Part shown: positions 4,248 to 61,807 of the stretch, piece after piece
How the letters are laid out: every line of letters begins with the position of its first letter
Numbering within the stretch: position 1 is the first letter of the stretch
Origin: an uncultured Chloroflexia bacterium
GTDB taxonomy: Bacteria; Chloroflexota; Chloroflexia; QHBQ01; JADMIH01
Assembly (NCBI GenBank): GCA_963797095.1
Contig: CAWCNY010000005.1
Coordinates: forward strand, 615,425 to 679,424
Length of the DNA stretch: 64,000 nt
Reading direction: 5' to 3'
The notes under the pieces: generated by a model
Database searches by the model: none
What the model saw: the letters and a program-made list of their open reading frames with translations, nothing else
Told to the model about the DNA's origin: nothing
Made by a program: the position numbers and the translations under genes

Positions 4248-4940
4248 ATGCTTGGCGACCGTCTCATTATGATCTCCGGTATAGATGGCAGCGGCAAATC
4301 GAGCCACCTGTCGTGGATTGCCGCTGCGCTGCGCGCCGATGGACAGCCTTACAGATATGTGCGTATGCGCTGGTCTGCGTTTACCAGTTATCCCTTGCTG
4401 GGGGTTGCCCGAATGATGGGGTACGCACCGCGTGAGTACAACAAACGCTCGCAGAGCGTGGTGATCAAGCATCGCTACGATGAGAGTGCGATGATGCACA
4501 AGCTGTGGCCGATGCTGTTCGCCTTCGATACTGCCATCAACGCCTCCAAGAAGGTGATACGGCCTTTGGAGCGTGGCGAGTGGGTGCTGTGCGATAGGTA
4601 TGTGGTGGATGCAATCGTGGATGTGGCAGCTATGCTCAAGGACGAGAACCTGCTACGCGGCAAGTTCGCAGATAAGCTACTTTCACTGGTCCCGCAAGGC
4701 ACGCGCAAGCTGTTTCTGGATACCGACCCTATGGTGGCCTTTGAGCGCAAGCTGGATATACCGGAACCGGAATTTGTGCTGTATCGCAGGCCGCTGTATG
4801 GAAGGCTTTCGGCGCTTACCCAAACTCCTGTGATAGATGGCAACCGATCTTATGAGAAGATACAGGAAGATATAGCCAGGATAGTGGGTTTTGGGCCGCT
4901 CGCCGAGCATAGAGGGGTTATCCCTGAGGGGATAGCATGA
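4248..4940 (+). CDS. Thymidylate-kinase-like P-loop kinase
   Basis: A Walker A motif (ISGIDGSGKSS) sits at the N-terminus and the dTMP-kinase-like fold has a DRY motif. The ORF track starts at TTG 4227; I prefer ATG 4248. Confidence 0.65.
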   Translation: MLGDRLIMISGIDGSGKSSHLSWIAAALRADGQPYRYVRMRWSAFTSYPLLGVARMMGYAPREYNKRSQSVVIKHRYDESAMMHKLWPMLFAFDTAINASKKVIRPLERGEWVLCDRYVVDAIVDVAAMLKDENLLRGKFADKLLSLVPQGTRKLFLDTDPMVAFERKLDIPEPEFVLYRRPLYGRLSALTQTPVIDGNRSYEKIQEDIARIVGFGPLAEHRGVIPEGIA

Positions 4941-6310
4941 AGATGGGGTATCGAGTACCGAGTGCCGAGTACCGAGTGGCGACACCGGTCGGGGGCGCAA
5001 CACCGAGCGTGCATAGCTCGCTGTGGATGCGGCTGCATTCGCGCGCGCCTCTGCTTGTCAGCAGCGGGACGGCCTTCCTGGGTACGACATTGACGGGGAT
5101 ACTGGGGTTTGTGTTCTGGGTGATCGCGGCTCGGCTCTATCCGGCATCGAGTGTTGGGCTCGCCAGCGCGGCAATCTCGGCCATGTTCCTGGTTGGGAAC
5201 CTGGGAAGGCTGGGGATGGATTACGCCCTGGCGCTCCACCTGCCACAGCAGGGCAATAAGGAGCGGAGGCATACGACCGCATTGGTGACGTTGGGCCTGG
5301 TGGGCATCGCAAGCGCGGCGTTTGGGCTGCTGTTCATCTTGCAGGGAGCGTTCAGCAGCGAGGTGCGCAACATGCTGGTCGAAAACGGCTGGCTGGCGGT
5401 GGGGTTTGTGCTGGCGTGCGGGGCGTGGGGGCTTGGGCTGGTGCTCGAACAGTTGCTGCTGGTCGGGAGGTATGGGGGACTGGTGCTGGGGAAGAACGCC
5501 GCCTTCTCGGTTGGACGGATCGTGGCTCTGGTGATCCTGCTGCCGCTCGCAGGCGAACGATACGGTATCGTGGCTGCTACGCTGCTGGGCGTGGGAGCGG
5601 GGGTCGCGGTGGTTTGGGCTGCGTTCAGGACCCGTATGGCCTATTCTTTCGGATCGATGCGGGAGAGCGTAGGCGAGGTGGCAAGGCTAGTTGGAAGCTC
5701 AGGCTTCGGGAACTATGTACCTGCGCTGGTGGCAGGACTGCCCGGCTGGCTCCTCCCCGTGACTGTGCTGGACCGAGCGGATAGCGCCAGCGCCGCCCAT
5801 TTCTATACAGCATGGATGATAGTGACATTGGTGAACTCGGCACCGGCTGCGCTGGCTTCTGGGATGCTGGCCGAAGGGTCGCGTGTACGCGAAAGCAGCC
5901 GAGCGCTCATATTGAAGGCCTATAAATACGCAGCAGTGGTGATGGTGCCAGCTGTGGCCGTCCTGTTTGTGGCGGCGGAGCCGATCCTCAGCATATTTGG
6001 GAGCGGCTATTCGGAGAGTGGAGCGGAACTGCTACACTGGATGGCGCTCGGCAGCATACCTTACGCGCTGGTGCAGGTCAACGCAATCAAGCTGCGTTTG
6101 GACGGCAAACTCGGCGCACTCGTTGTAGCGGCTGCTCTGCTCAGCAGCATCTGCCTGGGCGGCAGCTATTTCGCGATACCGGTATTCGGCCTGGAGTCGG
6201 TTGGAATAGCCTGGATGGCAGGCTCGGTATTGGCTGGCATTGTGAGCATTTGGCCTCTCTTGCCTACAATCTTTACACGCGGAGAAAAGACACAATGGCT
6301 GCAAGCGTAA
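4937..6310 (+). CDS. Polysaccharide biosynthesis protein / Wzx-like flippase (MOP superfamily)
   Basis: There are about 12-14 transmembrane helices with a Wzx-like N-terminus. An ATGA overlap with the upstream kinase suggests coupling. Codons 5-15 are encoded by a heptamer tandem repeat (CGAGT[AG]C), so the start could instead be the internal ATG at 5027. Confidence 0.7.
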   Translation: MKMGYRVPSAEYRVATPVGGATPSVHSSLWMRLHSRAPLLVSSGTAFLGTTLTGILGFVFWVIAARLYPASSVGLASAAISAMFLVGNLGRLGMDYALALHLPQQGNKERRHTTALVTLGLVGIASAAFGLLFILQGAFSSEVRNMLVENGWLAVGFVLACGAWGLGLVLEQLLLVGRYGGLVLGKNAAFSVGRIVALVILLPLAGERYGIVAATLLGVGAGVAVVWAAFRTRMAYSFGSMRESVGEVARLVGSSGFGNYVPALVAGLPGWLLPVTVLDRADSASAAHFYTAWMIVTLVNSAPAALASGMLAEGSRVRESSRALILKAYKYAAVVMVPAVAVLFVAAEPILSIFGSGYSESGAELLHWMALGSIPYALVQVNAIKLRLDGKLGALVVAAALLSSICLGGSYFAIPVFGLESVGIAWMAGSVLAGIVSIWPLLPTIFTRGEKTQWLQA

Positions 6311-14514: not shown

Positions 14515-15564
14515 ATGACAACAGCTACCCTCACGACGACGTGGCCGAATGCGCGTATCCTGGTGGTTGATGACCAGCCGGTGAACACTCTCCTCCTTGA
14601 GAATATCTTGAACAGGTATGGGTTCAGGAATGTGCATTCGATCACGGATGCGCGGGACGTGGTGCCTTTGGTGCGTGATCTGAAGCCTGACCTGATATTG
14701 CTCGATCTGTGGATGCCGTACCTGGATGGGTTTGAGGTGCTGGAGAATCTGAGCGATGTGATCGACGGGAGCGAGTTCTTGCCTGTGCTGGTGCTGACGG
14801 CGGATGTGAACCCGGATAGTAAGAGGCGCGCCCTATCGAGCGGTGCGAAGGACTTTTTGAACAAGCCGTTCGACAGCCAGGAAGTGATCCTGCGGGTTAC
14901 GAATTTGCTTGAGACGAGGTGGTTGTATTTGCAGTTGCAGGACCGGAACCGCAATCTGGACGAGCAGGTGCGGAAGCGCACTTATGAGCTGGAAGCGGCG
15001 CAGGTTGAGATGCTGGAGAGGCTGGCGTGGGCGGCTGAGTACCGGGACGACGATACGGGCCGCCATATCCAGCGGGTGGGGAATAATGCGACGATTGTGG
15101 CGGAGGCGCTTGGGCTGGGGGAGCAGTTGACCACGCTTATACAACGGGCTGCGCCTCTGCATGATGTGGGGAAGATCGGGGTGCCGGACAGTATTCTTCT
15201 TAAGCCGGGCAGGCTGACGGCTGAGGAGTTTGATGTGATCAAGAGGCATACGAATATCGGTGCTCGGATCCTGGCGGAGGGGCATTCGGCCCTGGTACGG
15301 ACGGCTGCGAGTATTGCTTTTTCGCACCACGAGCGATGGGACGGGTCGGGGTATCCGGCGCGCGTGACGGCGGAGAGGATTCCGATTGAGGGGCGTATTG
15401 TGGCGGTGGTGGATGCTTTTGATGCTCTTACTCATAAACGTCCTTATAAGGAGCCGTGGCCTATTGAGGATGCCCTTGCGGAGATACGCAGGAATACGGG
15501 GACGCAATTCGATCCTATGATTGCTGAGGCGTTTTTGGATTGTCAGAGGTGTCTTGAGTTGTGA
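14515..15564 (+). CDS. Response regulator with REC plus an HD-GYP phosphodiesterase domain (RpfG-like; c-di-GMP hydrolysis)
   Basis: The REC domain is present (ILVVDDQ...LLDLWMP). The HD domain is present ([11 protein letters not shown]). The [11 protein letters not shown] motif is the HD-GYP signature. Confidence 0.9.
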
Positions 15565-15625
15565 CGAGTGACGAGTAGCGAGTAGCGAGTGGCGAGTGGC
15601 GAGTGACGAGTGGTGAGGTAGGACT
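15563..15625. repeat. Heptanucleotide tandem repeat array (GAGTGAC/GAGTAGC/GAGTGGC, ~8 units)
   Basis: The run is cgagtgacgagtgacgagtagcgagtagcgagtggcgagtggcgagtgacgagtgg. It begins directly at the stop codon of the HD-GYP gene. Confidence 0.9.
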
Positions 15626-15729
15626 ATGTTCTGGGCTTGACGGCACTTTTGGGCCATTGATGATATCGATCCTCGGCGACTATGATGGTTGTCGGGGATT
15701 TCTTTTGGCTTGCGATTTGGAAGGATGGT

Positions 15730-16398
15730 ATGCAGCCACTGAAACAGCAAGCACCGTTTCGACTTGGACACAGGCCCGCGCTGGATGGGTTGCGCGGGAT
15801 ATTTGTGCTTACAGTGGTGGCTCTGCACGCCGGGATACCGTTCATGCAGGGTGGGGGCCTTGGGGTAGATGGCTTCTTTGTGCTGTCGGGGTTCTTGATT
15901 ACCTGTTTGCTTTTGCAGGAATGGCAACGCCACGGGGTGATCAGTCTTAATGGTTTCTACGTAAGACGGGCACTTCGGCTGCTGCCTGCCTTTTACAGCG
16001 TACTGGCCGTGATAGGGATAATCACTATGGTGTGCTTGACGGGAGACCTGGCGGTTGATACACAACGGGGATTGCTCCTTTCGTTCTTGTATTGCAGCAA
16101 CTGGTTCACGGTGTTTTTCGGGGAAAATCATGTTGGCCTGGGATTATTACTGCATACATGGTCACTTGGTATTGAGGAGCAGTTCTACCTGGTGTGGCCG
16201 GTGTTGCTGATAGGGTTGCTGAGGCTTCGTCTTCGGGAGATGAGGCTTGTGGCCGTGATTGGGACGCTGGCTGTGGTTGCGTCATTGCGGCGGGTATGGC
16301 TTGTGATGATTGGGACCTCCTTTGCGAGGATGTCGTTTGGGACGGATACGCGAGTGGATGCGTTACTGATTGGGTGTACATGGGGATTGGATGCGTGA
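15730..16398 (+). CDS. Acyltransferase family 3 (OafA/YrhL-like) membrane protein, C-terminally short relative to the family. It may be a pseudogene.
   Basis: The N-terminus is typical of acyltransferase-3 proteins (PALDGLRGIFVLTVVALH...GVDGFFVLSGFLIT...). The ORF ends after about 220 aa and is followed by about 370 bp without a convincing ORF. Confidence 0.45.
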   Translation: MQPLKQQAPFRLGHRPALDGLRGIFVLTVVALHAGIPFMQGGGLGVDGFFVLSGFLITCLLLQEWQRHGVISLNGFYVRRALRLLPAFYSVLAVIGIITMVCLTGDLAVDTQRGLLLSFLYCSNWFTVFFGENHVGLGLLLHTWSLGIEEQFYLVWPVLLIGLLRLRLREMRLVAVIGTLAVVASLRRVWLVMIGTSFARMSFGTDTRVDALLIGCTWGLDA

Positions 16399-36767: not shown

Positions 36768-36800
36768 CTAGTTCCTGGTTCCTGGTTCCTGGTTGTTGGT
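36768..36800. repeat. Heptanucleotide tandem repeat (GTTCCTG, ~4 units)
   Basis: The run is tagttcctggttcctggttcctggttgttgg, between the asparaginase II start and the O-methyltransferase stop. Confidence 0.85.
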
Positions 36801-37502
36801 AGTCGGAGGTCGGTAGTTGGAGGGATGGGTTGGTTGTTGGGGATTGGGTAGTTTTAGGGTTATTGAGAGGCCGTCGCGCAGGGGGATTATTGTGGTTGTC
36901 AGGCGGGGGTGGTTGGAGACTGCTTTGTTGAAGGCGGCTATGCCCTGGGTGGAGGGGGAGGGGTTCTGGGGGTCCAGGACGCCGCCTGAGCGGATGGCGT
37001 TGTCGGATAGGAGGAGGCCACCAGGGCGGAGACGGCGGAGGCAGCGGTCGAGCATATGGAGGGCGGTGTCGGGTTTGTCGAACTGGGTGAGGATGTCGAG
37101 GAAGATTAGGTCAAAGCTCTCTTCCATGCCGTTCATGAGGACCAGGGCGTCGCCACGGCGGACGGCGCAGGTGCTGGAGAGATCGGCCTGGCGGAAGTAG
37201 GCTTCGGCCCAGGAGGCGCGGGCGTCGTCTTTTTCCAGGGTGACTACGCGGCCTTCGTTTTGGCGGGCGGCGAGGGCTAACCAGAAGGCGGAATAGCCGA
37301 TGGCGGTGCCGACATCGAGGATGTCTTTGGCGCGAGTGGAGAGGGCGAGGGTGTAGAGGAAGTGGCCCTCAATAGGGCCTATGATGGGGACGTTTTCACG
37401 CTCGGCGTGGGCTTCCATGTCGGCCAGGACGCCCTGGCGGGCAGGGATCAATGATAGTAGGTATTCTTCTACTCTGGGGTCTGTTATTCCGAAGTGTTTC
37501 AT
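36768..37502 (-). CDS. Class I SAM-dependent O-methyltransferase (caffeoyl-CoA OMT-like)
   Basis: The SAM-binding motif is present (ILDVGTAIGYSAFWLA) along with downstream family motifs. Confidence 0.85.
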   Translation of the reverse strand: MKHFGITDPRVEEYLLSLIPARQGVLADMEAHAERENVPIIGPIEGHFLYTLALSTRAKDILDVGTAIGYSAFWLALAARQNEGRVVTLEKDDARASWAEAYFRQADLSSTCAVRRGDALVLMNGMEESFDLIFLDILTQFDKPDTALHMLDRCLRRLRPGGLLLSDNAIRSGGVLDPQNPSPSTQGIAAFNKAVSNHPRLTTTIIPLRDGLSITLKLPNPQQPTHPSNYRPPTTNNQEPGTRN

Positions 37503-42265: not shown

Positions 42266-42360
42266 TCTTCTAACTCCGAGGGTGAGGGAAACGTGACTAT
42301 TTCGTACTGCCTACTGCCTACTGCGTATTGCTTACTTCGTACTACTTAACTCGTCACCTG

Positions 42361-43575
42361 TCACGTTTCATTTATCATTTCTTGGGCCTTCTGCCTTGCC
42401 CAGTCGTCGGCCCACTTGATGTCTTGTATGTCGGGATGGGGAATGGCGGTTCCAACATGATTTTCGAGCACTTTCTCTATTATACCAGGAATTTGCCCGA
42501 AGCGGATTTCTTCGCGTAGGAAGGAGGCGACGGCTATTTCGTCGGCGGCAGCCATTACGGTGGGGTAGGTGCCACCTTTGCGCCCGGCCTCGAAGGCGAG
42601 GTCGAGGCAAGGGAAGCGGGGGCGGTCGACCGCTTCGAAGTGGAGCGCGCCGAGCGCGGGCCAATCGGCGCGGGGGTGGGCGGGATTGGGGTAGCGCTGG
42701 GGGTGGGTGAGGGCATACTGGATGGGGACGCGCATATCAGGGATGCCTAGCTGGGCTTTGGCTGAGCCGTCTACGAAGCGCACCATCGAGTGGATAATGC
42801 TTTCGGGGTGGACTATCACCTCTATGTCGTCGAAGGGGACGCCGAAGAGCCAGTGGGCTTCGATCACTTCCAGGCCCTTGTTCATGAGGGTGGCGGAGTC
42901 GATGGTGACTTTAGCGCCCATGTTCCAGGTGGGGTGATTGAGGGCCTGGCGGGGTGTGGCGTTGTAGGTGCTCTGGAGATCCCACTTGCGGAAGGGGCCG
43001 CCCGATGCGGTGAGGACGACTTTCTCGATGCAGTCCCAGGCACCGGAGACGCCACGAGTGTCTTCGCGGCGGGGGGCTTCGGGCTCGCCAACGAGGCACT
43101 GCCAGATGGCGCTGTGCTCGCTGTCGATCGGGCGGATGCGGATGCCTTTCTCGCGGGCGAGGGAGGTGACGATGGTGCCAGCCATCACGAGGGCTTCTTT
43201 GTTGGCGAGGGCGATCTGCTTGCCAGCGCCGAGGGCGGCGAGAGTGGGGGCGAAGCCCGCGTGGCCGGTGGTGGCGACCACCACCATGTCTACTTCGGGG
43301 TGGGTAGCGAGTTCGACCATGCCGGATTCGCCTGAGAGGATGCGAGAGTCGTTGCGGGCGGCTTGTTCTTCGGCGAGGGCGAGGAGGAGGGGAGGTTGTG
43401 GGAGGGAGGCGGCTTGCTTCAGGAGGGCGCCGCGGTCGCGGCCCGCGCCGAGGGCGACCACCTGGAAATGGTCCGGGAGGCGGCTGACTACGTCGAGGGT
43501 CTGGGTGCCGATGGAGCCGGTTGAGCCGAGGATGGCAATACGGATTTTGGATTTTGGATTTTGGATTTTGGACAT
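42361..43575 (-). CDS. dxr: 1-deoxy-D-xylulose 5-phosphate reductoisomerase
   Basis: The N-terminus reads RIAILGSTGSIGTQTLDV and Dxr core motifs are present. Codons 2-10 are encoded by a GGATTTT heptamer tandem repeat, translated as SKIQNPKSK. Confidence 0.9.
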   Translation of the reverse strand: MSKIQNPKSKIRIAILGSTGSIGTQTLDVVSRLPDHFQVVALGAGRDRGALLKQAASLPQPPLLLALAEEQAARNDSRILSGESGMVELATHPEVDMVVVATTGHAGFAPTLAALGAGKQIALANKEALVMAGTIVTSLAREKGIRIRPIDSEHSAIWQCLVGEPEAPRREDTRGVSGAWDCIEKVVLTASGGPFRKWDLQSTYNATPRQALNHPTWNMGAKVTIDSATLMNKGLEVIEAHWLFGVPFDDIEVIVHPESIIHSMVRFVDGSAKAQLGIPDMRVPIQYALTHPQRYPNPAHPRADWPALGALHFEAVDRPRFPCLDLAFEAGRKGGTYPTVMAAADEIAVASFLREEIRFGQIPGIIEKVLENHVGTAIPHPDIQDIKWADDWARQKAQEMINET

Positions 43576-43626
43576 TCGAAGTGTAATTCAGGGAACCACA
43601 GAGGCACTGAGGCACTGAGGTTCTTT
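43535..43626. repeat. Heptanucleotide tandem repeat (GGATTTT, 4-5 units, inside the dxr 5' end) plus an adjacent 8-mer repeat (GAGGCACT, ~2.5 units)
   Basis: The heptamer run is ggattttggattttggattttggattttgga. The 8-mer run is cagaggcactgaggcactgagg. Confidence 0.9.
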
Positions 43627-43632
43627 TGGGTT

Positions 43633-44523
43633 TTAGAGGTTGGGTAGGAGTTTGAGGGGGATGTAGAGGGCTAAGGCGATGAGGATGGGGTCGTGGCTTA
43701 GTTCTACGAGGGTGCGGGCCAGGTTTAGGCCGGGGGCGGTGGAGGCGCGGGAACCTGAGGCGGCAGAGACTAGAGGGCGGGTGAGGAGGCCGATCAGGAG
43801 GGCTGTGCCTATCAGAAGGGCGACCAGGAGGCCGAAGATTACGCGCCACAAAGGTTCGGTGTCGGCGTTGAACATGGTGAAGGAGAAGAGCACCACGGCT
43901 AGGGCTGTTGCGAGGATGAGAGCGATCAGATTGGCGGCGGTGATGTTGGTGCGGCGGCCCAATCGCCTGGTGGCGAGGGAGAGGGCTTCGAAGACGAGGG
44001 GCGGGAGGAGGACCAGGAGGATGAGGGGAGCGAGCCTGTTGGCGAAACTGTTGGCTACGAGCCACATGGCCTGCACACCAACGGAGGAGTAGAGGGCCAC
44101 GCCCATGACGAGCGCCCAGTCGCGGAGGGCGCGGGGAAGGTCGTGGCGGGGGAGTTGGGCGGCGAGGGTGAGGGCGGTGACAGGGCCGAGGGCTTCGACG
44201 GTGCGTTCAGGACCGATCAGGAGGCCGGGGAGGGTGAGCGCTCCATAGGTGGCGACGGTGAGAAGGGACCAGACCAGGCGATTACGCCGGGAGCCTTCGA
44301 AGAGGTTGTGGGAGGCGAACCCGGAGAGGAGGAAGCCCCAAAGAAGAAGGGTGGCGGGGACGGGGTTGAGGAAACCCCAGGCTACAAACCAGGAAAGAGG
44401 GTTGCCAACGGACATGAGGAGCACGATGGCAACCACAAGGAGGATTTTCCAGGTGAGGGTGATCCAGGTTGCGCGGGGCGCGGGCGCGCCGCCCATTCTG
44501 GCTCTACCGGCGGAGGCATCCAT
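43633..44523 (-). CDS. Polytopic membrane protein of unknown function. It occupies the position usually held by cdsA but lacks the CdsA signature.
   Basis: About 8 hydrophobic helices are predicted. No S-x-x-KR...GHGG...DR motif was found. Confidence 0.55.
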   Translation of the reverse strand: MDASAGRARMGGAPAPRATWITLTWKILLVVAIVLLMSVGNPLSWFVAWGFLNPVPATLLLWGFLLSGFASHNLFEGSRRNRLVWSLLTVATYGALTLPGLLIGPERTVEALGPVTALTLAAQLPRHDLPRALRDWALVMGVALYSSVGVQAMWLVANSFANRLAPLILLVLLPPLVFEALSLATRRLGRRTNITAANLIALILATALAVVLFSFTMFNADTEPLWRVIFGLLVALLIGTALLIGLLTRPLVSAASGSRASTAPGLNLARTLVELSHDPILIALALYIPLKLLPNL

Positions 44524-44532
44524 TCGGGACGC

Positions 44533-45360
44533 CTACTTCACGGTAGCGGGATCGAAGGAGACAGAGGCGGCCTGGGCAGAGATGGCGTCGTTCCCGTTGT
44601 ACTCATGTATCTCTTCGGGAAGGATGCCGCCAAACTTGCGGTTGCGCCTGCCGTACTCGGCTATGGCCTCTCGGAAGGAGTCTTTGTCGAAATCGGGCCA
44701 GCAGGTGGGGGTTGAGTAGAACTCGGAATAGGAGGCCTGCCAGACGAGGAAATTGCTGAGACGCATCTCGCCGGCTGTGCGGATGATGAGGTCGGGGTCG
44801 GGGATCTCGCGGGTGTAGAGGTGGCTGGAAATGGCCTCTTCGGTGATGTCTTCAGGCTTGACGCCCTCGGCCACGAGATCGCGGACGGCGCGCACGATGT
44901 CATCGCGACCGCCATAGTTGAAGCAGACGCTGAGGATCAGGCGGTTGTTGTGCCTGGTGGTTTCGAGCGCGTAGGCTATGGCCTTCTGCAAGGAGGGGGG
45001 CACGTTTTCCATGTGGCCCAGGTGGCGGATCTGGACGCCCTCGCGGGACAATTCGGGAGTCTCTTTGTGGATCACCTCGGCCAGGATGCGCATGAGGCCC
45101 TGCACCTCACCGCTCGGCCTGTTCCAGTTTTCGGTGGAGAAGGCGTAGACGGTCAGGTATTTGACATCGTTCTCGACGCAGGCATGGACTATGCGGCGAA
45201 TGTTCTCGGTGCCTGCGCGGTGCCCGGCCAGGCGTGGGAGACCGCGCCTGCGCGCCCATCTGCCGTTGCCGTCCATAATGATGGCGACGTGCTGCGGCCG
45301 AGGATCCAGATGATTTTGGATTTTGGATTTTGGATTTTGGATTTTGGAGATATCGGACAT
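44533..45360 (-). CDS. uppS: Undecaprenyl-diphosphate synthase (isoprenyl transferase)
   Basis: The HVAIIMDGNGRWA and ENWNRP motifs are present. The N-terminal codons are encoded by a GGATTTT heptamer repeat, translated as SKIQNPKSKIQN. Confidence 0.9.
   Translation of the reverse strand: MSDISKIQNPKSKIQNHLDPRPQHVAIIMDGNGRWARRRGLPRLAGHRAGTENIRRIVHACVENDVKYLTVYAFSTENWNRPSGEVQGLMRILAEVIHKETPELSREGVQIRHLGHMENVPPSLQKAIAYALETTRHNNRLILSVCFNYGGRDDIVRAVRDLVAEGVKPEDITEEAISSHLYTREIPDPDLIIRTAGEMRLSNFLVWQASYSEFYSTPTCWPDFDKDSFREAIAEYGRRNRKFGGILPEEIHEYNGNDAISAQAASVSFDPATVK
45305..45352. repeat. Heptanucleotide tandem repeat (GGATTTT, ~5 units) at the uppS 5' end
   Basis: The run is gattttggattttggattttggattttggattttggag. 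Confidence 0.9.
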
Positions 45361-45525
45361 GGGTCGTTCTACTTTTGCTCCAAGTTTAGCCTGCCAGAGG
45401 ATTATATGCGCGTGTCTCTACTGAGATCAACGACTTGAGTGCTTAAAGATTACTCTCTCTACAATTTACGCGGGAGTTGCCAAAATGGGCGCGTCCGGGA
45501 AGACCCAAACCGAAATCCGAAATCG

Positions 45526-46110: not shown

Positions 46111-47624
<1,514 letters not shown>

Positions 47625-47735
47625 GTTTGTTGTTCCTCCTGGGATAATAAAATGCCGGTAGTCAAGTGTCGGTAGTCAGTTGCGGAAGATCCGCTACCGA
47701 CTACTGGCAACTGACTACCGACAACTTGTGTTTTT

Positions 47736-48737
47736 CTATGCTTCTTCGTCGTCGGGCGAGAAGCTGTACTCACCCGGCTCGACTGTGTAATCGAAATCTT
47801 GCTCGGCGCGCATGGTCTCGCGGCGCTGTTGGCCTTCGATGGCGGCGTCCGCAATCTTGGCGGTGATTACACGGACGGCCCTGATGGCGTCGTCGTTGGA
47901 GGGGATCACATAATCCACCTCGTCGGGATCGCAGTTGGTGTCGACCATAGCGACGACTATTATGCCAAGCTTGATGGCCTCTGTGATGGCAATGCGCTCG
48001 CGATGAGGGTCGACTATGAAGACGGCGCTCGGCAGGTCGCGCATGTTTTTGATGCCGCCCAGCAGGTTGTTGAGGCGCACGATCTGCTCTTCGAGCTTGC
48101 TGGCCTCGGCCTTCGGTAGGTCGTTGAACTCGCCACGCTCGCGGCGGAACTCGAGGTCCTGTAGGTAGCGAAGGCGCTCGCGGATGGTGCGGAAGTTGGT
48201 GAGCATACCGCCCATCCAGCGTTTGTTGACAAAGAGTTGCCCTGCGCGCTCGGATTCTTCCTGGATGGCTTCCTGGGCCTGCTTCTTGGTGCCGATGAAG
48301 AGAATTCTGTCGCCGCGCGCCACAAGGTCGCTCACGAAGTTCATGGCTGCCTGCAAGCCGGTGACGGTCTGCTGTAGGTCGATGATGTGGATGCCGTTGC
48401 GCTCGGTGAAGATGTAGGGCTTCATCTTGGGGTTCCAGCGCTTGGTCTGGTGCCCGAAGTGTACGCCCGCTTCGAGGAGGGCCTTCATGCTGATGCCGGT
48501 GGAAGCTGAGCCGGCGCTCACGTTGCCGTCGGCTGAGCCGTTCGCCGAGCGCTGTGGCCTGGCGGGTGCTTCGACCGGTGCTGTTTCGACCGGTGCTGTT
48601 TCGACCGGTGCTGTTTCGACCGGTGCTGTTTCGACCGGTGCGGCTTCCGCCACTGGAGCCTGGGCGACAGGAGCCTCGACGGCGGTGGGCTGTTCTGTAT
48701 CTACCTGCTGTTCGATGTCACTATCCATAGTTACCAA
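47736..48737 (-). CDS. rpsB: 30S ribosomal protein S2 with an ~83-aa acidic Pro/Ala-rich N-terminal extension
   Basis: The S2 core starts at [20 protein letters not shown]. The extended start TTG 48737 has a strong upstream GGAGG at 5-nt spacing. The extension contains 4x APVET from a 15-bp tandem repeat. The alternative short start is ATG 48489. Confidence 0.85.
48575..48640. repeat. 15-bp tandem repeat (cggtgctgtttcgac, ~4 units), encoding (APVET)x4 in the RpsB N-terminal extension
   Basis: The run is ccggtgctgtttcgaccggtgctgtttcgaccggtgctgtttcgaccggtgctgtttcgacc. Confidence 0.9.
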
Positions 48738-51132: not shown

Positions 51133-53340
51133 TTAGCGGGCGCTTTGGCCTGAGGTGGTGCCTCTGTAGATTGTGTAGCGGGGTTGTTGTTCGGCTATTT
51201 TGTAGAGGGATTGGAGGGTTTGGGTGGTGGCGGGGGAGAGGCGGGCGAAGCCACGCTCGTGGACTACTATGAGGGAGACAAGGGTGGAGCGTTCGAGGAA
51301 GTCGGCCTGGGGGATGGGGCTTCGCATTACGGCATAGGGGTCGTCGCCGTGGTCGCCGCGCAGAGAGGAGTCGATGAGGTCGCCCCAATCGCGGGTGTCG
51401 AGGCTGAGGCCGAGGTAGATCATGTGGCCGTAGCTGTCGATCAGGTAGCCGGTGGAGGGGGAATAGCTGGGTGGACGGGCTGAGAGTATGTTGAACTGCT
51501 CGTCGGAGGAGAGGACGGACGAGCCGGGAGGGACGGCGTCGTTGACGTAGCGGGCAACAATCTCGAAGATGTGGTCTTCGCAGTGGGGGCAGTCGCGGGT
51601 GGTCATGCCGGTCCATTGGAGAACGATGAGGGGTGAACCTACCAGGAGGAGAACCACGAGAGGGGTGAAGGTTGTTAGTAGGGAGGTGCGTCGGGCAGAA
51701 GCGGGAGGCCGAGGGTGAGCAGAGGTGCGGGACGTGAGGCGGCGGAGGAGTCCGGGGGTGAGGCTCAGGCCGGCAGCGAGGATGCAGAAGGGGGCGGCTA
51801 GCTGGATGTAGTAGTGCTGGTAGAAGGAGCGGCTGTAGGTGAAGAGGATGAGGCTGAAGAAGGCCCAGAAGATGGCGACGCGCCAGGGGCCGAGGGAGCC
51901 GCGCAGGTTGGCCCACACCCAACAAGAGAGGACTATGAAGCCGAGAGCGGCCAGGAGCGGGGTGAGGGCGTTGGCGAGGCTGGAGGTTAGGTCGCCTATG
52001 CGGGCGGGGGTATCGACCTCGCCGTCGCTGGGGCGGAGCATCTGGAAGAAGAAGACCATGCGGATGAACTGGGAGGGGGCGATGATGAGGAAGGGGCCGA
52101 CGACGACCAGGAAGGAGGCTAGAGCGCCAAGGATGAGGGAGATGAACGAATTCTGGATTTTGGATTCTGGATCTTGGATCTTGGATTTGTTGGTGCCGAG
52201 TTCTGAGTTTGAAGTGGGGAGTGGGGGATCTGGGTCGTCTTGGGTAGGGGTTAGGGTGGAGGGTTGGATGGGGGTGGTGCGGCGGGTTTCTAGCCAGAGC
52301 CAGATCATGTCGGCTAGGATGGCGAGGAGGCAGGCCAGGCCAGCTATTTTGGTGAGGGCACTCAGGGCGGCCAGGACGCCGACGAGGAAGAATCCGAGGC
52401 GCGGGGTGCGGAGTTTGGAGTGCGGAGTGCGGAGTGCGGAGTGCGGAGTGTTTATTCTGTTGTTTGTTAGGGTGGGGCGGACCAAGATGTAGAGGAGAAC
52501 GGCGGCGCATGATAAGAGGACCAGGGGGCCTTCCAGCATTATCTTGCGGTTGATCTCTACTACTCTGCCGTCGATGGCCCAGAGGCCGCCTGCCAAGGCG
52601 CCGCCCCAGAGGCCTGCAAGGAGATAGCCTATGCCGAATAGTAGGGCCAGGGTTATCAGGCTGTAGGCGACGGAGAGGTAGCGCGCGATCATGAAGGAGG
52701 TGGGACTTCCCCATTCGGTGAAGTGGTAGGCCATGGCGGGAGCGTAGGCAATGGCGGCGATGGGAGGGTGGGCGAAGAAGTAGTCGCGATAGGGGAGGAT
52801 GCCTTGCAGGAAAAGCTGGGAAGTGCCTGCATAGACGCCTTCATCGTCGTAGGGATAGCGGCTGATGCCGTAGTTCTGGGGCCATAGCTCGACCATGCGG
52901 CCAATGCCACCAATGAGGATCAGCACCAGGAGCAGGGCAAGCGGAATCCAGCGTGATAGGCGTGGGCGTGTGGCTGGTTGGAGTGGGTGTGGAGGTTGGT
53001 CGTCAGGGGTGGGGAGTTTGTTGGAGATGAAGCGGGTCGAGAGGAGGGCAGCGCCGAGGAGCCATGCGGCCCAGGCCAGCCAGGGGCGGGCGTCGTAGTG
53101 AGCTTCGAGGGGGGAGAGGATGCCGAGTTGGAGGGGGGCGTCCCAGGCGACGCTGCCACCGAGCCAGCCGGAGATGCCTTCAATAAGGAGGGACAGGAGG
53201 CGCAAGTTGATGGCGACGCCTAGAGCGCCATAGGCAATCAGGATCGCTGAGATGTAGGGGACGAAGCGGGCAAAGTAGCCTGTTAGGGGCAGGCTGTACT
53301 TCTGCGATTGCATGGAGGGATTGTCGCAGAAGCACAGCAA
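51133..53340 (-). CDS. Glycosyltransferase family 39 / ArnT-PMT-like membrane glycosyltransferase
   Basis: A multi-transmembrane N-terminus with a PMT_2-like region is present (YPYDDEGVYA...). Two in-frame heptamer-repeat-derived inserts are present (HSALRTPHSKLRTP and KIQDPESKIQN). Confidence 0.75.
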   Translation of the reverse strand: MLCFCDNPSMQSQKYSLPLTGYFARFVPYISAILIAYGALGVAINLRLLSLLIEGISGWLGGSVAWDAPLQLGILSPLEAHYDARPWLAWAAWLLGAALLSTRFISNKLPTPDDQPPHPLQPATRPRLSRWIPLALLLVLILIGGIGRMVELWPQNYGISRYPYDDEGVYAGTSQLFLQGILPYRDYFFAHPPIAAIAYAPAMAYHFTEWGSPTSFMIARYLSVAYSLITLALLFGIGYLLAGLWGGALAGGLWAIDGRVVEINRKIMLEGPLVLLSCAAVLLYILVRPTLTNNRINTPHSALRTPHSKLRTPRLGFFLVGVLAALSALTKIAGLACLLAILADMIWLWLETRRTTPIQPSTLTPTQDDPDPPLPTSNSELGTNKSKIQDPESKIQNSFISLILGALASFLVVVGPFLIIAPSQFIRMVFFFQMLRPSDGEVDTPARIGDLTSSLANALTPLLAALGFIVLSCWVWANLRGSLGPWRVAIFWAFFSLILFTYSRSFYQHYYIQLAAPFCILAAGLSLTPGLLRRLTSRTSAHPRPPASARRTSLLTTFTPLVVLLLVGSPLIVLQWTGMTTRDCPHCEDHIFEIVARYVNDAVPPGSSVLSSDEQFNILSARPPSYSPSTGYLIDSYGHMIYLGLSLDTRDWGDLIDSSLRGDHGDDPYAVMRSPIPQADFLERSTLVSLIVVHERGFARLSPATTQTLQSLYKIAEQQPRYTIYRGTTSGQSAR
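52140..52192. repeat. Heptanucleotide repeat (GGATTTT/GGATCTT variants, ~5 units) inside the GT39 ORF
   Basis: The run is ttctggattttggattctggatcttggatcttggatttg. Confidence 0.85.
52395..52450. repeat. Heptanucleotide repeat (GCGGAGT, ~5 units) inside the GT39 ORF
   Basis: The run is gcggagtttggagtgcggagtgcggagtgcggagtgcggagtg, encoding HSALRTPHSKLRTP on the minus strand. Confidence 0.85.
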
Positions 53341-55477: not shown

Positions 55478-55548
55478 TAGTTGGGTATAGTTCCTGGTTC
55501 CTGGTTCCTGGTTCTGACTACCGGCTACCGGCTACCGGCTACCTGCTT
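55478..55548. repeat. Compound heptamer array (GTTCCTG x4, then GGCTACC x3) abutting the left end of the IS element
   Basis: The run is agttcctggttcctggttcctggttctgactaccggctaccggctaccggctacctgc. Confidence 0.9.
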
Positions 55549-57861: not shown

Positions 57862-57950
57862 AGGTGGCGAGTGGCGAGTGGCGAGTGGCGAGCGGCGAGC
57901 GGCGAGCGACGAGTGACGAGTGACCAGGAACTAGGGACTAGGGACTAGGA
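57862..57950. repeat. Compound heptamer array (GGCGAGT/GGCGAGC ~8 units, then ACTAGGG/AACTAGG ~3 units), between the T-box terminator and the pheS start
   Basis: The run is ggcgagtggcgagtggcgagtggcgagcggcgagcggcgagcgacgagtgacgagtgaccaggaactagggactagggactaggaact. Confidence 0.9.
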
Positions 57951-59167: not shown

Positions 59168-61807
59168 ATGCCATTAAGAGCGCCACTTTCGTGGCTTCGA
59201 GAGTATCTTGAGCTAACGGCTTCGCTTGAGGAGCTTGCGCGGCGGCTTACGCTGGCGGGGCAGGAGGTGGAGCATATCGTGACGGTCGGTGATGAGTGGG
59301 AGAACATCTACACGGGGCAGGTAGTGAAACTGGAGAGGCATCCCAACGCCGACCGGCTGAACCTGGCTACCGTGGAATACGGGGCGGATAGCGCGATCAC
59401 GGTAGTGACGGGAGCGCCGAATATCGAGGAGGGGCAGAAGGTGGTGCTGGGGTTGCTGGGGTCGAGGTATATCGACCAACATCAAGATCCATCAAAGGAT
59501 GCGTTACCACGCAATGGCCTTAAGTGGTCGCGCCTGAAGCCCGCCAAGATACGGGGCGTGCAGACCGAGGGGATGGTGATGTCGGAGGCGGAGCTGGGGT
59601 TGTCGGAGGAGCACGAAGGGATTATCGTGTTGGACCCCGGCACGCCACTTGGCTTACCGGCGCGTGAAGTGCTTGGGGATACAGTGTTGCAGATAGATGT
59701 GACGCCTAATAATGGGCGGGTGCTGAGTATGATCGGGCTGGATAGGGAGATCTCCGCGATATTCGGGGGAAAGGTGCAGTGGCCTTCGAGCGAATGGCAG
59801 GCCGGCGGGCCATCTGTGCATGACGTACTGAAGATAGAGATAGCGGACCCCGATCTGTGCTCTCGGTACTCGGCGGCGGTGATCAAGGGGGTGCGGCTTG
59901 GGCCTTCGCCCCAGTGGATGCAGAAGCGGCTCACGCTGGCGGGGATGAGGCCGATCAGCAACATCGTAGACATTACCAACTATGTGATGCTGGAGATGGG
60001 GCAACCACTGCATGCGTTCGATTACAACACGGTGGAGGGGCACAAGGTGATCGTGAGGCGGGCGCGGCCGGGCGAGAGGCTGGTGACGCTGGACCACGTG
60101 GACCGGGCGCTTGATCCTAATATGCTGGCGATCTGCGACGTTGAAAGACCGGTGGGGTTGGCGGGGGTGATGGGCGGATTGAACAGCGAGATCGAGGGGG
60201 AGGAAGGCGATCGTGTTGATGTGCTGCTGGAATCGGCGCATTTCGACCCCGGCAACACAAGGCGAACGGCGAGGCTGTTGCGTTTACCTTCGGAGGCGTC
60301 ACATAGGTTCGAGCGGTTCGTTGACCCCAATTTGACGGTGCCCGCATTGAAGCGAGCCGCAGAGTTGATGCGGCAGTTGGGCGATGGGACTATAGCGGAG
60401 GGATATATAGATGAATATCCGGTGCCGAGCAAGCCAAAGCGGATGATGTTCTACACGTCGGAGGTGGAGCGGTTGCTGGGGATCAGGGTGGCACCAAGCC
60501 AGGTGGCCGATGTGCTGCGTAGGCTTGAGTTCGGGGTGGATATTCCGGACAACGCCGACGTGGTTGGGCAGGATACCACGCTGATGGTGGACGTTCCTAC
60601 GTACAGGAACGATGTGGTCATACAGGCCGACCTGGTGGAGGAAGTGGCGCGCATCACGGGCTACGACCTGATCCCTGAGACGTTGATCGTGGGGGGCTTG
60701 CCTCCACAGGAAGTGAATGCATCACTGGAGACGGAGGCGGAGATCCGCGATCTGATGGTGGCGTGCGGCATGGACGAGGTGATCAACTACTCGGTGACCT
60801 GGAGCGGTGCGCTTGAGAAGATGGCGGAGATGGGCGAAGGACGAAGGGTGAAGGGCGAAGGACGAGCGGAGTATGACGCCTGGGATACGGCCCGCCTGCT
60901 GGTTACTATCGTGAACCCGGTCAGCAGCCGCCAGGATGTCATGAGGCCGACCCTGCTGCCTAATATGCTGGATACGTTGAGGAACAACTTGAAGATGCAG
61001 GCCGAAACACCGGTGCGTATCTTTGAGTTGGGCAAGGTGTACCTTTCGCCGACCGAGGCAGAGATCGAGGCGCGGCGGGAGGTTATGCGGAAGGAGCGCG
61101 AGAGGTACCCGCGCATGAACCAGTGGCCGCCCGTGGAGAACGAGGACAAGATGCCTATCGAGCCGCGCAGGATGATGGGGATGATGGCGGGGCCGCACAC
61201 GCCCCGTTCTCTGTACGCGCCCGACAGCGAGAAGGCAGAGGAGATGCTCGATTACTTCGATGCCAAGGGCGTGGTGGAGGAGTTGATAGGGCAGATGCAC
61301 ATCGCGGGAGTGGAGTGGGTGCCTGTGGATGCGCCACTGTTCCACCCCGGCAGGGTCGCCATGCTGCGGAAGGATGGCGTGGAATTGGGCGTGGTCGGAG
61401 AGTTGCACCCCAATCTGCTGGCGGAATGGGAGGTGCCCGCGTCGCGGGTGGCTGCCTTCGACCTGGACGTGGAGGCGCTTATAAGCGCGCTGCCTAACAG
61501 GGTGCGGTATAAGACGATCAGCGCGTACCCGCCTGTGAGACAGGATATGGCATTCGTGGTTGATGAAGGGGTGGAGGCGGCGCGAGTGGCGGAAGGGATC
61601 AGGCGAGCAGGAGGCGATGCCGTGACGGGCGTGAGCCTGTTCGATATCTACCGGGGCAAGCCTGTGCCGGAGGGCCGCAAGAGCCTGGCGTTCGCCGTGA
61701 CGCTCAACTCGCCGGAGAAGCCGCTGAGCGAGGAGGAAGTGGCGCGGATACGAAAGAAGATCGAGGGAATGCTGGCGAGGGAGCTGGGAGCGCAGTTGCG
61801 CAGCTAA
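59168..61807 (+). CDS. pheT: Phenylalanine--tRNA ligase beta subunit
   Basis: The domains are present in order: tRNA-binding (OB), B3/B4, the B5 region, and the C-terminal FDX-ACB domain. There are insertions, including a Gly/Glu-rich segment around 60830. Confidence 0.95.
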   Translation: MPLRAPLSWLREYLELTASLEELARRLTLAGQEVEHIVTVGDEWENIYTGQVVKLERHPNADRLNLATVEYGADSAITVVTGAPNIEEGQKVVLGLLGSRYIDQHQDPSKDALPRNGLKWSRLKPAKIRGVQTEGMVMSEAELGLSEEHEGIIVLDPGTPLGLPAREVLGDTVLQIDVTPNNGRVLSMIGLDREISAIFGGKVQWPSSEWQAGGPSVHDVLKIEIADPDLCSRYSAAVIKGVRLGPSPQWMQKRLTLAGMRPISNIVDITNYVMLEMGQPLHAFDYNTVEGHKVIVRRARPGERLVTLDHVDRALDPNMLAICDVERPVGLAGVMGGLNSEIEGEEGDRVDVLLESAHFDPGNTRRTARLLRLPSEASHRFERFVDPNLTVPALKRAAELMRQLGDGTIAEGYIDEYPVPSKPKRMMFYTSEVERLLGIRVAPSQVADVLRRLEFGVDIPDNADVVGQDTTLMVDVPTYRNDVVIQADLVEEVARITGYDLIPETLIVGGLPPQEVNASLETEAEIRDLMVACGMDEVINYSVTWSGALEKMAEMGEGRRVKGEGRAEYDAWDTARLLVTIVNPVSSRQDVMRPTLLPNMLDTLRNNLKMQAETPVRIFELGKVYLSPTEAEIEARREVMRKERERYPRMNQWPPVENEDKMPIEPRRMMGMMAGPHTPRSLYAPDSEKAEEMLDYFDAKGVVEELIGQMHIAGVEWVPVDAPLFHPGRVAMLRKDGVELGVVGELHPNLLAEWEVPASRVAAFDLDVEALISALPNRVRYKTISAYPPVRQDMAFVVDEGVEAARVAEGIRRAGGDAVTGVSLFDIYRGKPVPEGRKSLAFAVTLNSPEKPLSEEEVARIRKKIEGMLARELGAQLRS

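Follow-up and report, generated by a model that had tools for sequence, protein, structure and literature searches.

Heptamers are over-represented among the long simple repeats of several bacteria (PMC4692102), and two families of such repeats come closest to the one described here. In filamentous heterocystous cyanobacteria, the 7-bp STRR repeats form intergenic hairpins, which have been proposed to act in transcript stability or translational coupling (PMC2670836). In Beggiatoaceae, the heptamer TAACTGA lies a few nucleotides from start codons that lack a Shine-Dalgarno sequence and overlaps stop codons, and where it falls within open reading frames (ORFs), it is found at the extreme N- or C-terminus of proteins, the essential MurG among them, with 7-nt indels between strains (PMC4679880). 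Here we analyze heptamer arrays in a stretch of 64,000 nt from an uncultured Chloroflexia bacterium (contig CAWCNY010000005.1, positions 615,425 to 679,424; hereafter, the window), two of which lie at the 5' ends of the reading frames of dxr and uppS. The arrays of these two genes are a local instance of a wider repeat system, which populates gene boundaries across this Chloroflexia lineage. The explanation that we favor, with a probability of roughly 0.7, is that heptamer arrays occur lineage-wide and that those in coding sequence are a tolerated decoration which selection keeps in frame. In the literature on heptamer repeats, no description of such repeats in Chloroflexi was found.

The Chloroflexia arrays resemble STRR repeats in being tandem 7-nt units, a limited set of which is reused at many loci, and in being mostly intergenic, with a potential for hairpins between genes of an operon, as STRR repeats often have, for example, between hupS and hupL (PMC2670836, PMC4692102). 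They differ in that the host belongs to another phylum, that the units are AAAATCC, GCAATCC, ACTCCGC, GACTACC, GTGGCGA and others, that several arrays lie inside the frames of core genes, and that orthologous arrays can be traced across genomes, with concerted unit turnover. The canonical STRR units, such as CCCCAGT, are not among the units found here. Because both host and units differ, the Chloroflexia arrays are an analogue of the STRR repeats and not a strict member of them. With the TAACTGA repeats of Beggiatoaceae, some cyanobacteria and Bacteroidetes, they share direct heptamers near Shine-Dalgarno-less starts, the overlap of some arrays with stop codons, in-ORF arrays at protein ends, and indels in 7-nt steps (PMC4679880). 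In those repeats, however, one unit dominates, in a forward orientation that places stop codons in all frames, and inverted pairing is the exception (PMC4679880), whereas here there are many units, which are free of stops in the sense direction and are read through, and inverted pairing is the rule; TAACTGA itself is absent from the 37 units found. The REP, BIME and REPIN elements of proteobacteria are likewise dispersed intergenic hairpin repeats in operons, kept at orthologous positions, for which roles in mRNA stabilization have been proposed (PMC3116915). However, REPs have a fixed consensus of about 20–40 nt and a RAYT transposase, while the arms described here are variable heptamer arrays.

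The two genes, their arrays and their immediate upstream regions comprise the following features:

42361..43575, minus strand: dxr ORF (404 aa), whose sole canonical in-frame start is the ATG at 43575-43573
43542..43572, minus strand: (AAAATCC)x4.4 array in dxr, codons 2-11 (SKIQNPKSKI)
43597..43620, minus strand: array of three copies of the 8-nt unit CCTCAGTG, within the 57-nt spacer 5' of dxr
44533..45360, minus strand: uppS ORF (275 aa), with a start context ATG-TCN-GAY (MSD) that is kept in relatives, including ones without an in-ORF array
45312..45348, minus strand: (AAAATCC)x5.3 array in uppS, codons 5-17 (SKIQNPKSKIQN), reported by TRF as unit GATTTTG x5.3
45401..45430, minus strand: promoter-like TTGATC-18-TATAAT 5' of uppS, of which relatives keep TTAAGCACTCAAGnCGTTGAT...TATAAT
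45504..45524, minus strand: degenerate G-rich array GATTTCGGATTTCGGTTTGGG (arm 1), 1 nt past the frr stop and partly complementary to the uppS array

On the minus strand, dxr begins with ATG TCC AAA ATC CAA AAT CCA AAA TCC AAA ATC CGT ATT GCC ATC CTC GGC, which gives the N-terminus M-SKIQNPKSKI-RIAILGSTGSIG; TRF reports GGATTTT x4.4 at 43542-43572 with 100% matches. The frame is closed upstream by an in-frame TGA (43590-43588) five codons 5' of the ATG, and no in-frame ATG, GTG or TTG was found between the array and LGSTGSIG, which holds the GSTGSIG NADPH-binding motif at residues 17-23. The assignment as Dxr is supported by PF02670, PF08436 and PF13288, all on record for this exact protein. 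In uppS, TCC GAT ATC and then (TCCAAAA)x5.3 at 45348-45312 come after the ATG at 45360, giving MSDIS-KIQNPKSKIQN-HLDPRPQHVAIIMDGNGRW. The next in-frame ATG after the array encodes the M of the catalytic segment IIMDGNGRW, and a canonical in-frame start was looked for between the array and this segment and was not found. UppS is identified by its HVAIIMDGNGRWA motif, by the members of its 90% cluster, which are named undecaprenyl diphosphate synthase, and by PF01255, on record for relatives at ~88% identity. An earlier reading of this DNA from the sequence alone (the first-pass annotation) had correctly stated that neither gene has an alternative in-frame start downstream of its array. It had also recognized the repeats as in frame, though it drew both one codon short, at codons 2-10 of dxr instead of 2-11 and at codons 5-16 of uppS instead of 5-17. 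Because 7 and 3 are coprime, an array yields the same cyclic heptapeptide in every frame, AAAATCC giving KIQNPKS, and therefore SKIQNPKSKI-like strings recur in Dxr, UppS and a glycosyltransferase of this genome. Judging from these reading frames, the dxr and uppS arrays are almost certainly translated into short floppy tails.

The comparison with orthologues that the first-pass annotation had proposed bears this out, in that arrays occupy the same dxr and uppS positions in relatives, always in frame, while some relatives have none. The nearest relatives (loci and proteins numbered here with L and P) are uncultured soil Chloroflexia known from metagenome-assembled genomes, whose Dxr is 69-79% identical in a scan of genome collections; in the protein database, Dxr identity reaches 82%. 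At least one close relative, L084, is among the matches listed in the metagenome scan with UppS. In the UppS cluster (~87-92% identical), all 12 of 12 relatives are in frame with arrays at the orthologous position, and in eight of the 11 with a called N-terminus, the distance from M1 to DPKP is exactly 17 residues, as in the window. The MSD start is kept with the array downstream of the ATG in the window, L082, L164, L165 and L167, where the array lies between the conserved start and the conserved LDPKPQHV segment; in L002 (MSD) and in L004 and L005 (both MSE), the array is upstream of the ATG.

The dxr orthologues of L082, L083 and L164 begin with MPQSKIQNPKSKINIALLG, from an AAAATCC unit, and that of P0021 with MNQSAIRNPQSAIVNIAL, from GCAATCC, whereas in L001 a GTG start stands immediately 5' of a CAATCCG array and in L008 the array is CCATCGT; all six are in frame. 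The units vary between genomes (AAAATCC, GCAATCC, GCACTCC). Among homologues at 73-82% identity, Dxr N-termini range from 5-10 residues up to 49 and share no conserved sequence. For example, homologues of 74-76% identity start with MTTNLAI, MVVNLAI or MVTNLAI, MQKPVVNIAL is also found, and others carry unrelated tails of 10-49 residues. Since relatives have 7-residue N-termini and no conserved sequence, the N-terminal extension of Dxr is dispensable. The AlphaFold2 model of the window Dxr has a mean pLDDT of 88.9, with values below 50 for residues 1-7; coil extends over residues 1-10 and the first strand spans residues 11-16, so that the tail is predicted to be disordered. Across in-ORF arrays, the sense peptide is always hydrophilic (mean hydropathy -0.3 to -3.0), and the antisense reading is usually more hydrophobic, e.g., GFWILDF. 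That the N-terminal peptides are tolerated decoration, one of two alternatives offered in the first-pass annotation, fits all of these comparative data, including the in-frame orthologues, the short-tailed relatives and the predicted coil.

Public gene callers begin P0013, P0058 and P0061 (UppS/Dxr) past the repeat or tail although the ORF is intact, and repeat-derived tails appear to confuse start prediction. Two of these proteins (P0013, 250 aa; P0058, 383 aa) were considered as frameshifted natural variants and rejected, as their contigs hold the full in-frame ORF and the short forms are start choices of the gene callers.

The arrays of dxr and uppS belong to a far larger set. Exact period-7 arrays of at least 2.5 units number 17 in the window, compared with 0.0 in shuffled sequences, and the same search at periods 8-14 returned none in the window. 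By a wider count, the 64-kb window holds 23 heptamer arrays of many different units, 16 of which are intergenic although intergenic sequence makes up 15% of the window (binomial P = 7e-9, with two ORF calls corrected). The remaining seven lie at the starts of dxr, uppS and perhaps a flippase gene, at the end of an O-methyltransferase gene, within a glycosyltransferase gene (two) and within pheT (one). The density of period-7 arrays per 100 kb is 26.6 in the window and 45.1 in close Chloroflexia loci, falls to 3.3 in more distant Chloroflexi, and is 0 in Paenibacillus and related controls. Units are reused within the window (GGATTTT at three loci, GTTCCTG at three, GTGGCGA at two and GGTAGTC-type at three), and the AAAATCC unit is present in five genomes.

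The positions of these arrays relative to genes are clearest in L082, a syntenic locus with the cluster rpsB-tsf-pyrH-frr-uppS-x-dxr-rseP. Nearly every spacer from rpsB to rseP carries two arrays there, and most pairs are reverse complements. The first arm lies 2-12 nt past the upstream stop codon or across it, and the second either stops 6-20 nt short of the next start codon or lies just within the next ORF; L164 shows the same boundary pattern. The arrangement had been called unusual in the first-pass annotation, but because relatives carry heptamer arrays at almost every gene boundary, it is not unusual for this lineage. In the window, paired arrays or their remnants are found in three further spacers of the cluster:

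47653..47723, minus strand: rpsB-tsf hairpin with 34-nt arms of the GGTAGTC/GACTACC unit family, z = -6.8
47023..47096, minus strand: tsf-pyrH hairpin of GGTAGTC/GACTACC arrays with a 22-bp stem, z = -4.0 (-3.97)
42288..42369, minus strand: dxr-rseP spacer, in which a relic stem of GAAACGTGAC (overlapping the dxr stop) with GTCACGTTTC surrounds (GCAGTAG)x3

In relatives, the dxr-rseP spacer contains long paired arrays, with hairpin z-scores of -9.2 (L164), -8.6 (L002), -6.7 (L005) and -5.5 (L082). The frr-uppS hairpin reaches -9.2 in L002, -5.5 in both L082 and L164, and -4.3 in L004, and a slightly longer L082 stretch, folded separately, gives -4.9. Overall, z runs from -3 to -9 in relatives. 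Between genomes, the two arms of the dxr-rseP hairpin swap their unit jointly, the pairs being TAAAACG/CGTTTTA, TGAAACG/CGTTTCA and TAACACG/CGTGTTA. That arms always match was considered and ruled out, with arm 1 degenerate or shortened in the window and in L167.

Taken together, we hypothesize that the genome of this Chloroflexia lineage has been seeded with short tandem arrays of 7-nt units, and that a gene boundary would typically receive a pair, one array at or after the stop codon and one just before or after the next start, which often are reverse complements and could form an intercistronic hairpin. In dxr and uppS, and wherever else the second array has come to lie 3' of the start codon, it would be translated. 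The sense peptides, being hydrophilic and proline-containing, would precede the first beta strand as a disordered tail and leave the enzyme undisturbed, and purifying selection would discard copy-number changes other than multiples of three units. Such selection on copy number would explain why the coding arrays are short and in frame and why the uppS array is constant in length. Unit sequences would change concertedly, with conversion from other arrays as the most likely mechanism. As a side benefit, the G-poor array may keep the initiation regions of dxr and uppS, which lack a Shine-Dalgarno sequence, unstructured.

It is possible, although we regard it as distinctly less probable, that the start-proximal arrays are mRNA cis-elements, acting either as unstructured ribosome landing sites or as paired stem-loops that stabilize, process or translationally gate read-through transcripts, with translation of the array as a by-product. 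This view overlaps with tolerated decoration and does not exclude it. Throughout the clade, a well-placed Shine-Dalgarno sequence was found for neither dxr nor uppS in any relative read, and rseP, by comparison, has GGAG 7-9 nt upstream. By prediction, opening positions -18 to +15 costs 4.5 kcal/mol in uppS and 5.2 kcal/mol in dxr, the fourth and sixth lowest among 49 genes (median 10.0), a background of longest-ORF starts of which some are wrong. Deleting the arrays in silico about doubles these energies, to 8.2 (uppS) and 10.1 kcal/mol (dxr). In different genomes, the uppS array, whether before or after the ATG, keeps to a distance of about 40 nt or less from it, which is compatible with such a cis role. 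In L002, L004 and L005, 3-7 nt separate the end of the array from the uppS ATG, and in L082 and L164, 6 nt separate the end of an array from the dxr ATG, while the arrays of the window begin immediately past the dxr ATG and 12 nt past the uppS ATG. The significant hairpins in many relatives, with arms that change unit jointly, argue in the same direction, as do the similar roles proposed for STRR and TAACTGA repeats (PMC2670836, PMC4679880). Further, the conserved promoter-like site at 45401-45430 is located between the two uppS arms, and consequently the long uppS stem would be open only to transcripts that read through from frr. However, uppS has no array in L084, L001 and L006, many Dxr homologues have none either, the corresponding hairpins are degenerate in the window itself, and template switching at quasi-palindromes can match arms without selection.

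Several observations also weigh against the combined picture of tolerated coding arrays within a hairpin architecture. The frr-uppS hairpin of the window is degenerate, pairing GATTTCGGATTTCGGTTTGGG with AAAATCC at z = -0.6. Its dxr-rseP counterpart is reduced to a 10-bp relic stem at z = +0.3, and the dxr array has no complementary partner and is fully unpaired in the minimum free energy fold. Because these hairpins of the window are degenerate, the hairpin context is drawn mainly from relatives. Since relatives do without arrays at these genes, any benefit to initiation would not be essential, and the opening energies are to be read with the imperfect start calls of their background in mind. 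Translation of the arrays is deduced from ORF logic and conservation, and the conversion mechanism is conjecture.

Unit turnover bears on a more speculative proposal. L164 and L167 are ~95-97% identical through the uppS gene body, yet each unit of the uppS array (2025-2055 in L164) differs between them by GC-to-AA (GCAATCC vs AAAATCC) with the length unchanged, and the non-coding partner arm of this array is three units shorter in L167 than in L164. Stepwise slippage within an essential frame cannot easily yield such a uniform change; the simplest idea, offered as conjecture, is conversion from another array, with the AAAATCC array of dxr, at a distance of 1.7 kb, as one possible donor. Because all units differ alike at constant length, it is conceivable that the paired arrays are actively maintained operon punctuation, read by a trans factor in 7-nt register or rewritten by dedicated conversion or template switching, in which case the Dxr and UppS tails would be the coding-side arm of paired elements. 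We regard this as improbable.

For the tolerated-decoration reading, the comparative data also speak to where translation begins. If the arrays were an untranslated 5' leader, initiation would have to occur downstream at a non-canonical codon, i.e., ATT or ATC in dxr and CTG in uppS. Near-cognate codons do follow both arrays, and the uppS array truly lies 5' of the ATG in L002, L004 and L005. Nevertheless, we consider this very unlikely. Starting at ATT, Dxr would have just three residues ahead of LGSTGSIG, fewer than any of ~100 homologues (minimum five). The alternative codons have no preceding Shine-Dalgarno sequence, the MSD context 5' of the uppS array is conserved, and the arrays are in frame from ATG or GTG to the core in independent genomes (the window, L082, L164, L167, L001 and P0021). 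The first-pass annotation had named such a downstream start as a point that would overturn translation of the repeats, and the comparison speaks against it.

The other alternative offered there, namely that slippage at these sites switches essential genes off, is very improbable and not supported by the data. In this scenario, dxr, uppS and the glycosyltransferase gene would be contingency loci toggled in a subpopulation by slippage of one or two units. As in the contingency loci of Haemophilus and Neisseria, the unit is not a multiple of three and lies near the 5' end of the ORF. Arrays of this type do slip, as a one-unit indel separates two near-identical strains: over 13.2 kb, L082 and L083 differ by seven single-nucleotide polymorphisms and one 7-nt unit. 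However, this indel falls in an untranslated ACGCAAT array (L082 11748-11781), six nucleotides 5' of the dxr ATG, and copy-number change between near-identical strains was seen only in this untranslated array, whereas the coding arrays are identical in L081, L082 and L083, three independent assemblies of one strain. An exact look-up of the window Dxr in the contig index gave no match, and hence no second assembly of the window strain. The coding arrays have only 4-5 units, and tracts of this length switch rarely in Haemophilus and Neisseria. In addition, every orthologue examined is in frame, the length of the UppS tail is nearly constant, and the seemingly truncated database proteins are gene-caller start choices and not frameshifts. 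Both dxr and uppS are core biosynthetic, essential genes, for which an OFF state would be lethal. Contingency loci further differ from these arrays in that the tracts here are short, the coding ones show no length polymorphism, the genes concerned are housekeeping genes and not surface or restriction-modification genes, and the arrays are spread lineage-wide and are mostly intergenic.

One detail of the window could be seen as favoring a switch. Upstream of the dxr array, at distances of 36 and 45 nt, stand GTG codons of the two remaining frames, which are open into the array and could in principle rescue a shifted dxr frame. These codons are supplied by the 8-nt CCTCAGTG array, in place of which relatives have an ACGCAAT heptamer array. 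We considered rescuing starts in all three frames as a design and rejected it, as they are present for dxr of the window and absent for uppS, in its other two frames, and for L001; the GTG codons upstream of dxr are probably coincidence.

Finally, assembly or sequencing artefacts, which the first-pass annotation had raised as a possible refutation, can be practically discounted: the relatives are metagenome-assembled and repeats can mis-assemble, but the arrays, at 31-50 nt, are far below sequencing-read length, recur in independent ENA, NCBI and Logan assemblies and in many other samples, and leave the ORFs intact.

Beyond dxr and uppS, arrays in or at reading frames of the window are the following:

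51133..53340, minus strand: GT-C/PMT-like membrane ORF (735 aa) holding two in-frame arrays
52401..52450, minus strand: (ACTCCGC)-type array within the frame of the GT-C/PMT-like ORF, encoding HSALRTPHSKLRTP, in a loop between hydrophobic segments
52150..52188, minus strand: (AAGATCC/AAAATCC) array, in frame in the GT-C/PMT-like ORF as KSKIQDPESKIQN
4948..4982, plus strand: (GTACCGA)x4.3 array at the 5' end of a Wzx/MOP-flippase-like ORF (4937..6310)
36771..36794, minus strand: (CAGGAAC)x3.4 array encoding the last residues of an O-methyltransferase, QEPGTRN*
60835..60865, plus strand: (CGAAGGA)x4.4 array, in frame within pheT, GEGRRVKGEGR

The GT-C/PMT-like ORF had been called a GT39 gene with two in-frame arrays; the arrays are present, but the family label rests on a sub-threshold match to Pfam PMT (PF02366; E=0.002, 18.2 bits against a cutoff of 22.7), and the ORF has no NCBIfam match. 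Both arrays are located where conservation is poor, between hydrophobic stretches, and the L082 orthologue carries QSKIQNPRSKI in the loop matching KSKIQDPESKIQN. The ORF at 4937..6310 on the plus strand has homologues in the PF01943 family (Wzx/MOP). Its ATG overlaps the upstream stop codon (ATGA) and is followed by the array, and a second ATG stands at codon 31. The first-pass annotation had listed the flippase as a possible case of translated repeats; with the ATG at codon 31 as an alternative start, this array may or may not be translated.

The longest ORF for pyrH (46111-47097, minus strand) runs through three heptamer arrays and was rejected as the gene, as the PyrH proteins of relatives have 268 aa, corresponding to a start at M61 (46917). 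With the real pyrH start at M61, the arrays in the longest ORF belong to the tsf-pyrH spacer hairpin. Between uppS and dxr, at 43633-44523 on the minus strand, lies a gene for a 296-aa membrane protein that is present in all close relatives, and to which neither Pfam nor NCBIfam gave any match; this place is usually held by cdsA. The rpsB ORF (47736..48737, minus strand) contains a perfect 15-nt repeat of 4.8 copies at 48570-48641 that encodes (APVET)n and, since 15 is a multiple of three, is neutral to the frame. It sits in an N-terminal extension of S2 of ~86 residues, the Pfam S2 domain beginning at residue 87, and candidate starts are either the upstream one, with the extension, or one near SMKALLEAG. 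Rfam and tRNA scans of the window revealed no known RNA genes.

Some further features concern the arrays at large. Three unrelated loci (36771-36815, 46996-47060 and 55490-55547) share a composite in which (CAGGAAC)n comes immediately after a GACTACC/CCGGTAG-type array, suggesting spread or conversion of arrays in blocks. The longest arrays of the window, (GTGGCGA)x8, occur twice. One, at 15561-15617, starts where a response-regulator/HD-type gene (14515..15564) has its stop codon, and a long ORF running over it (14833..16131) was dismissed as spurious; the other, at 57864-57922, lies in the pheS leader alongside GACTAGG and TTCGTCC arrays. Whatever the gene orientation, GC skew on the plus strand is strongly positive (~0.03 to 0.34, mostly 0.1-0.3). 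For most heptamer arrays, the G-rich strand is the plus strand, irrespective of the direction of neighboring genes, which hints at a bias linked to the replication strand.

For annotation, it follows that low-complexity N- and C-terminal tails and "extra" loops in conserved proteins of this lineage are often read-through heptamer arrays, and that gene callers disagree on start codons because of repeat-derived tails. What makes the dxr and uppS arrays of interest is the lineage-wide architecture and concerted turnover to which they belong, and not a switch of essential genes. The unexplained heptamer excess, found mainly in cyanobacteria, Beggiatoaceae, some Bacteroidetes and Xanthomonas, now extends to Chloroflexia, where orthologous arrays can be traced over many metagenome genomes, and concerted turnover and selection on intercistronic hairpins become testable.

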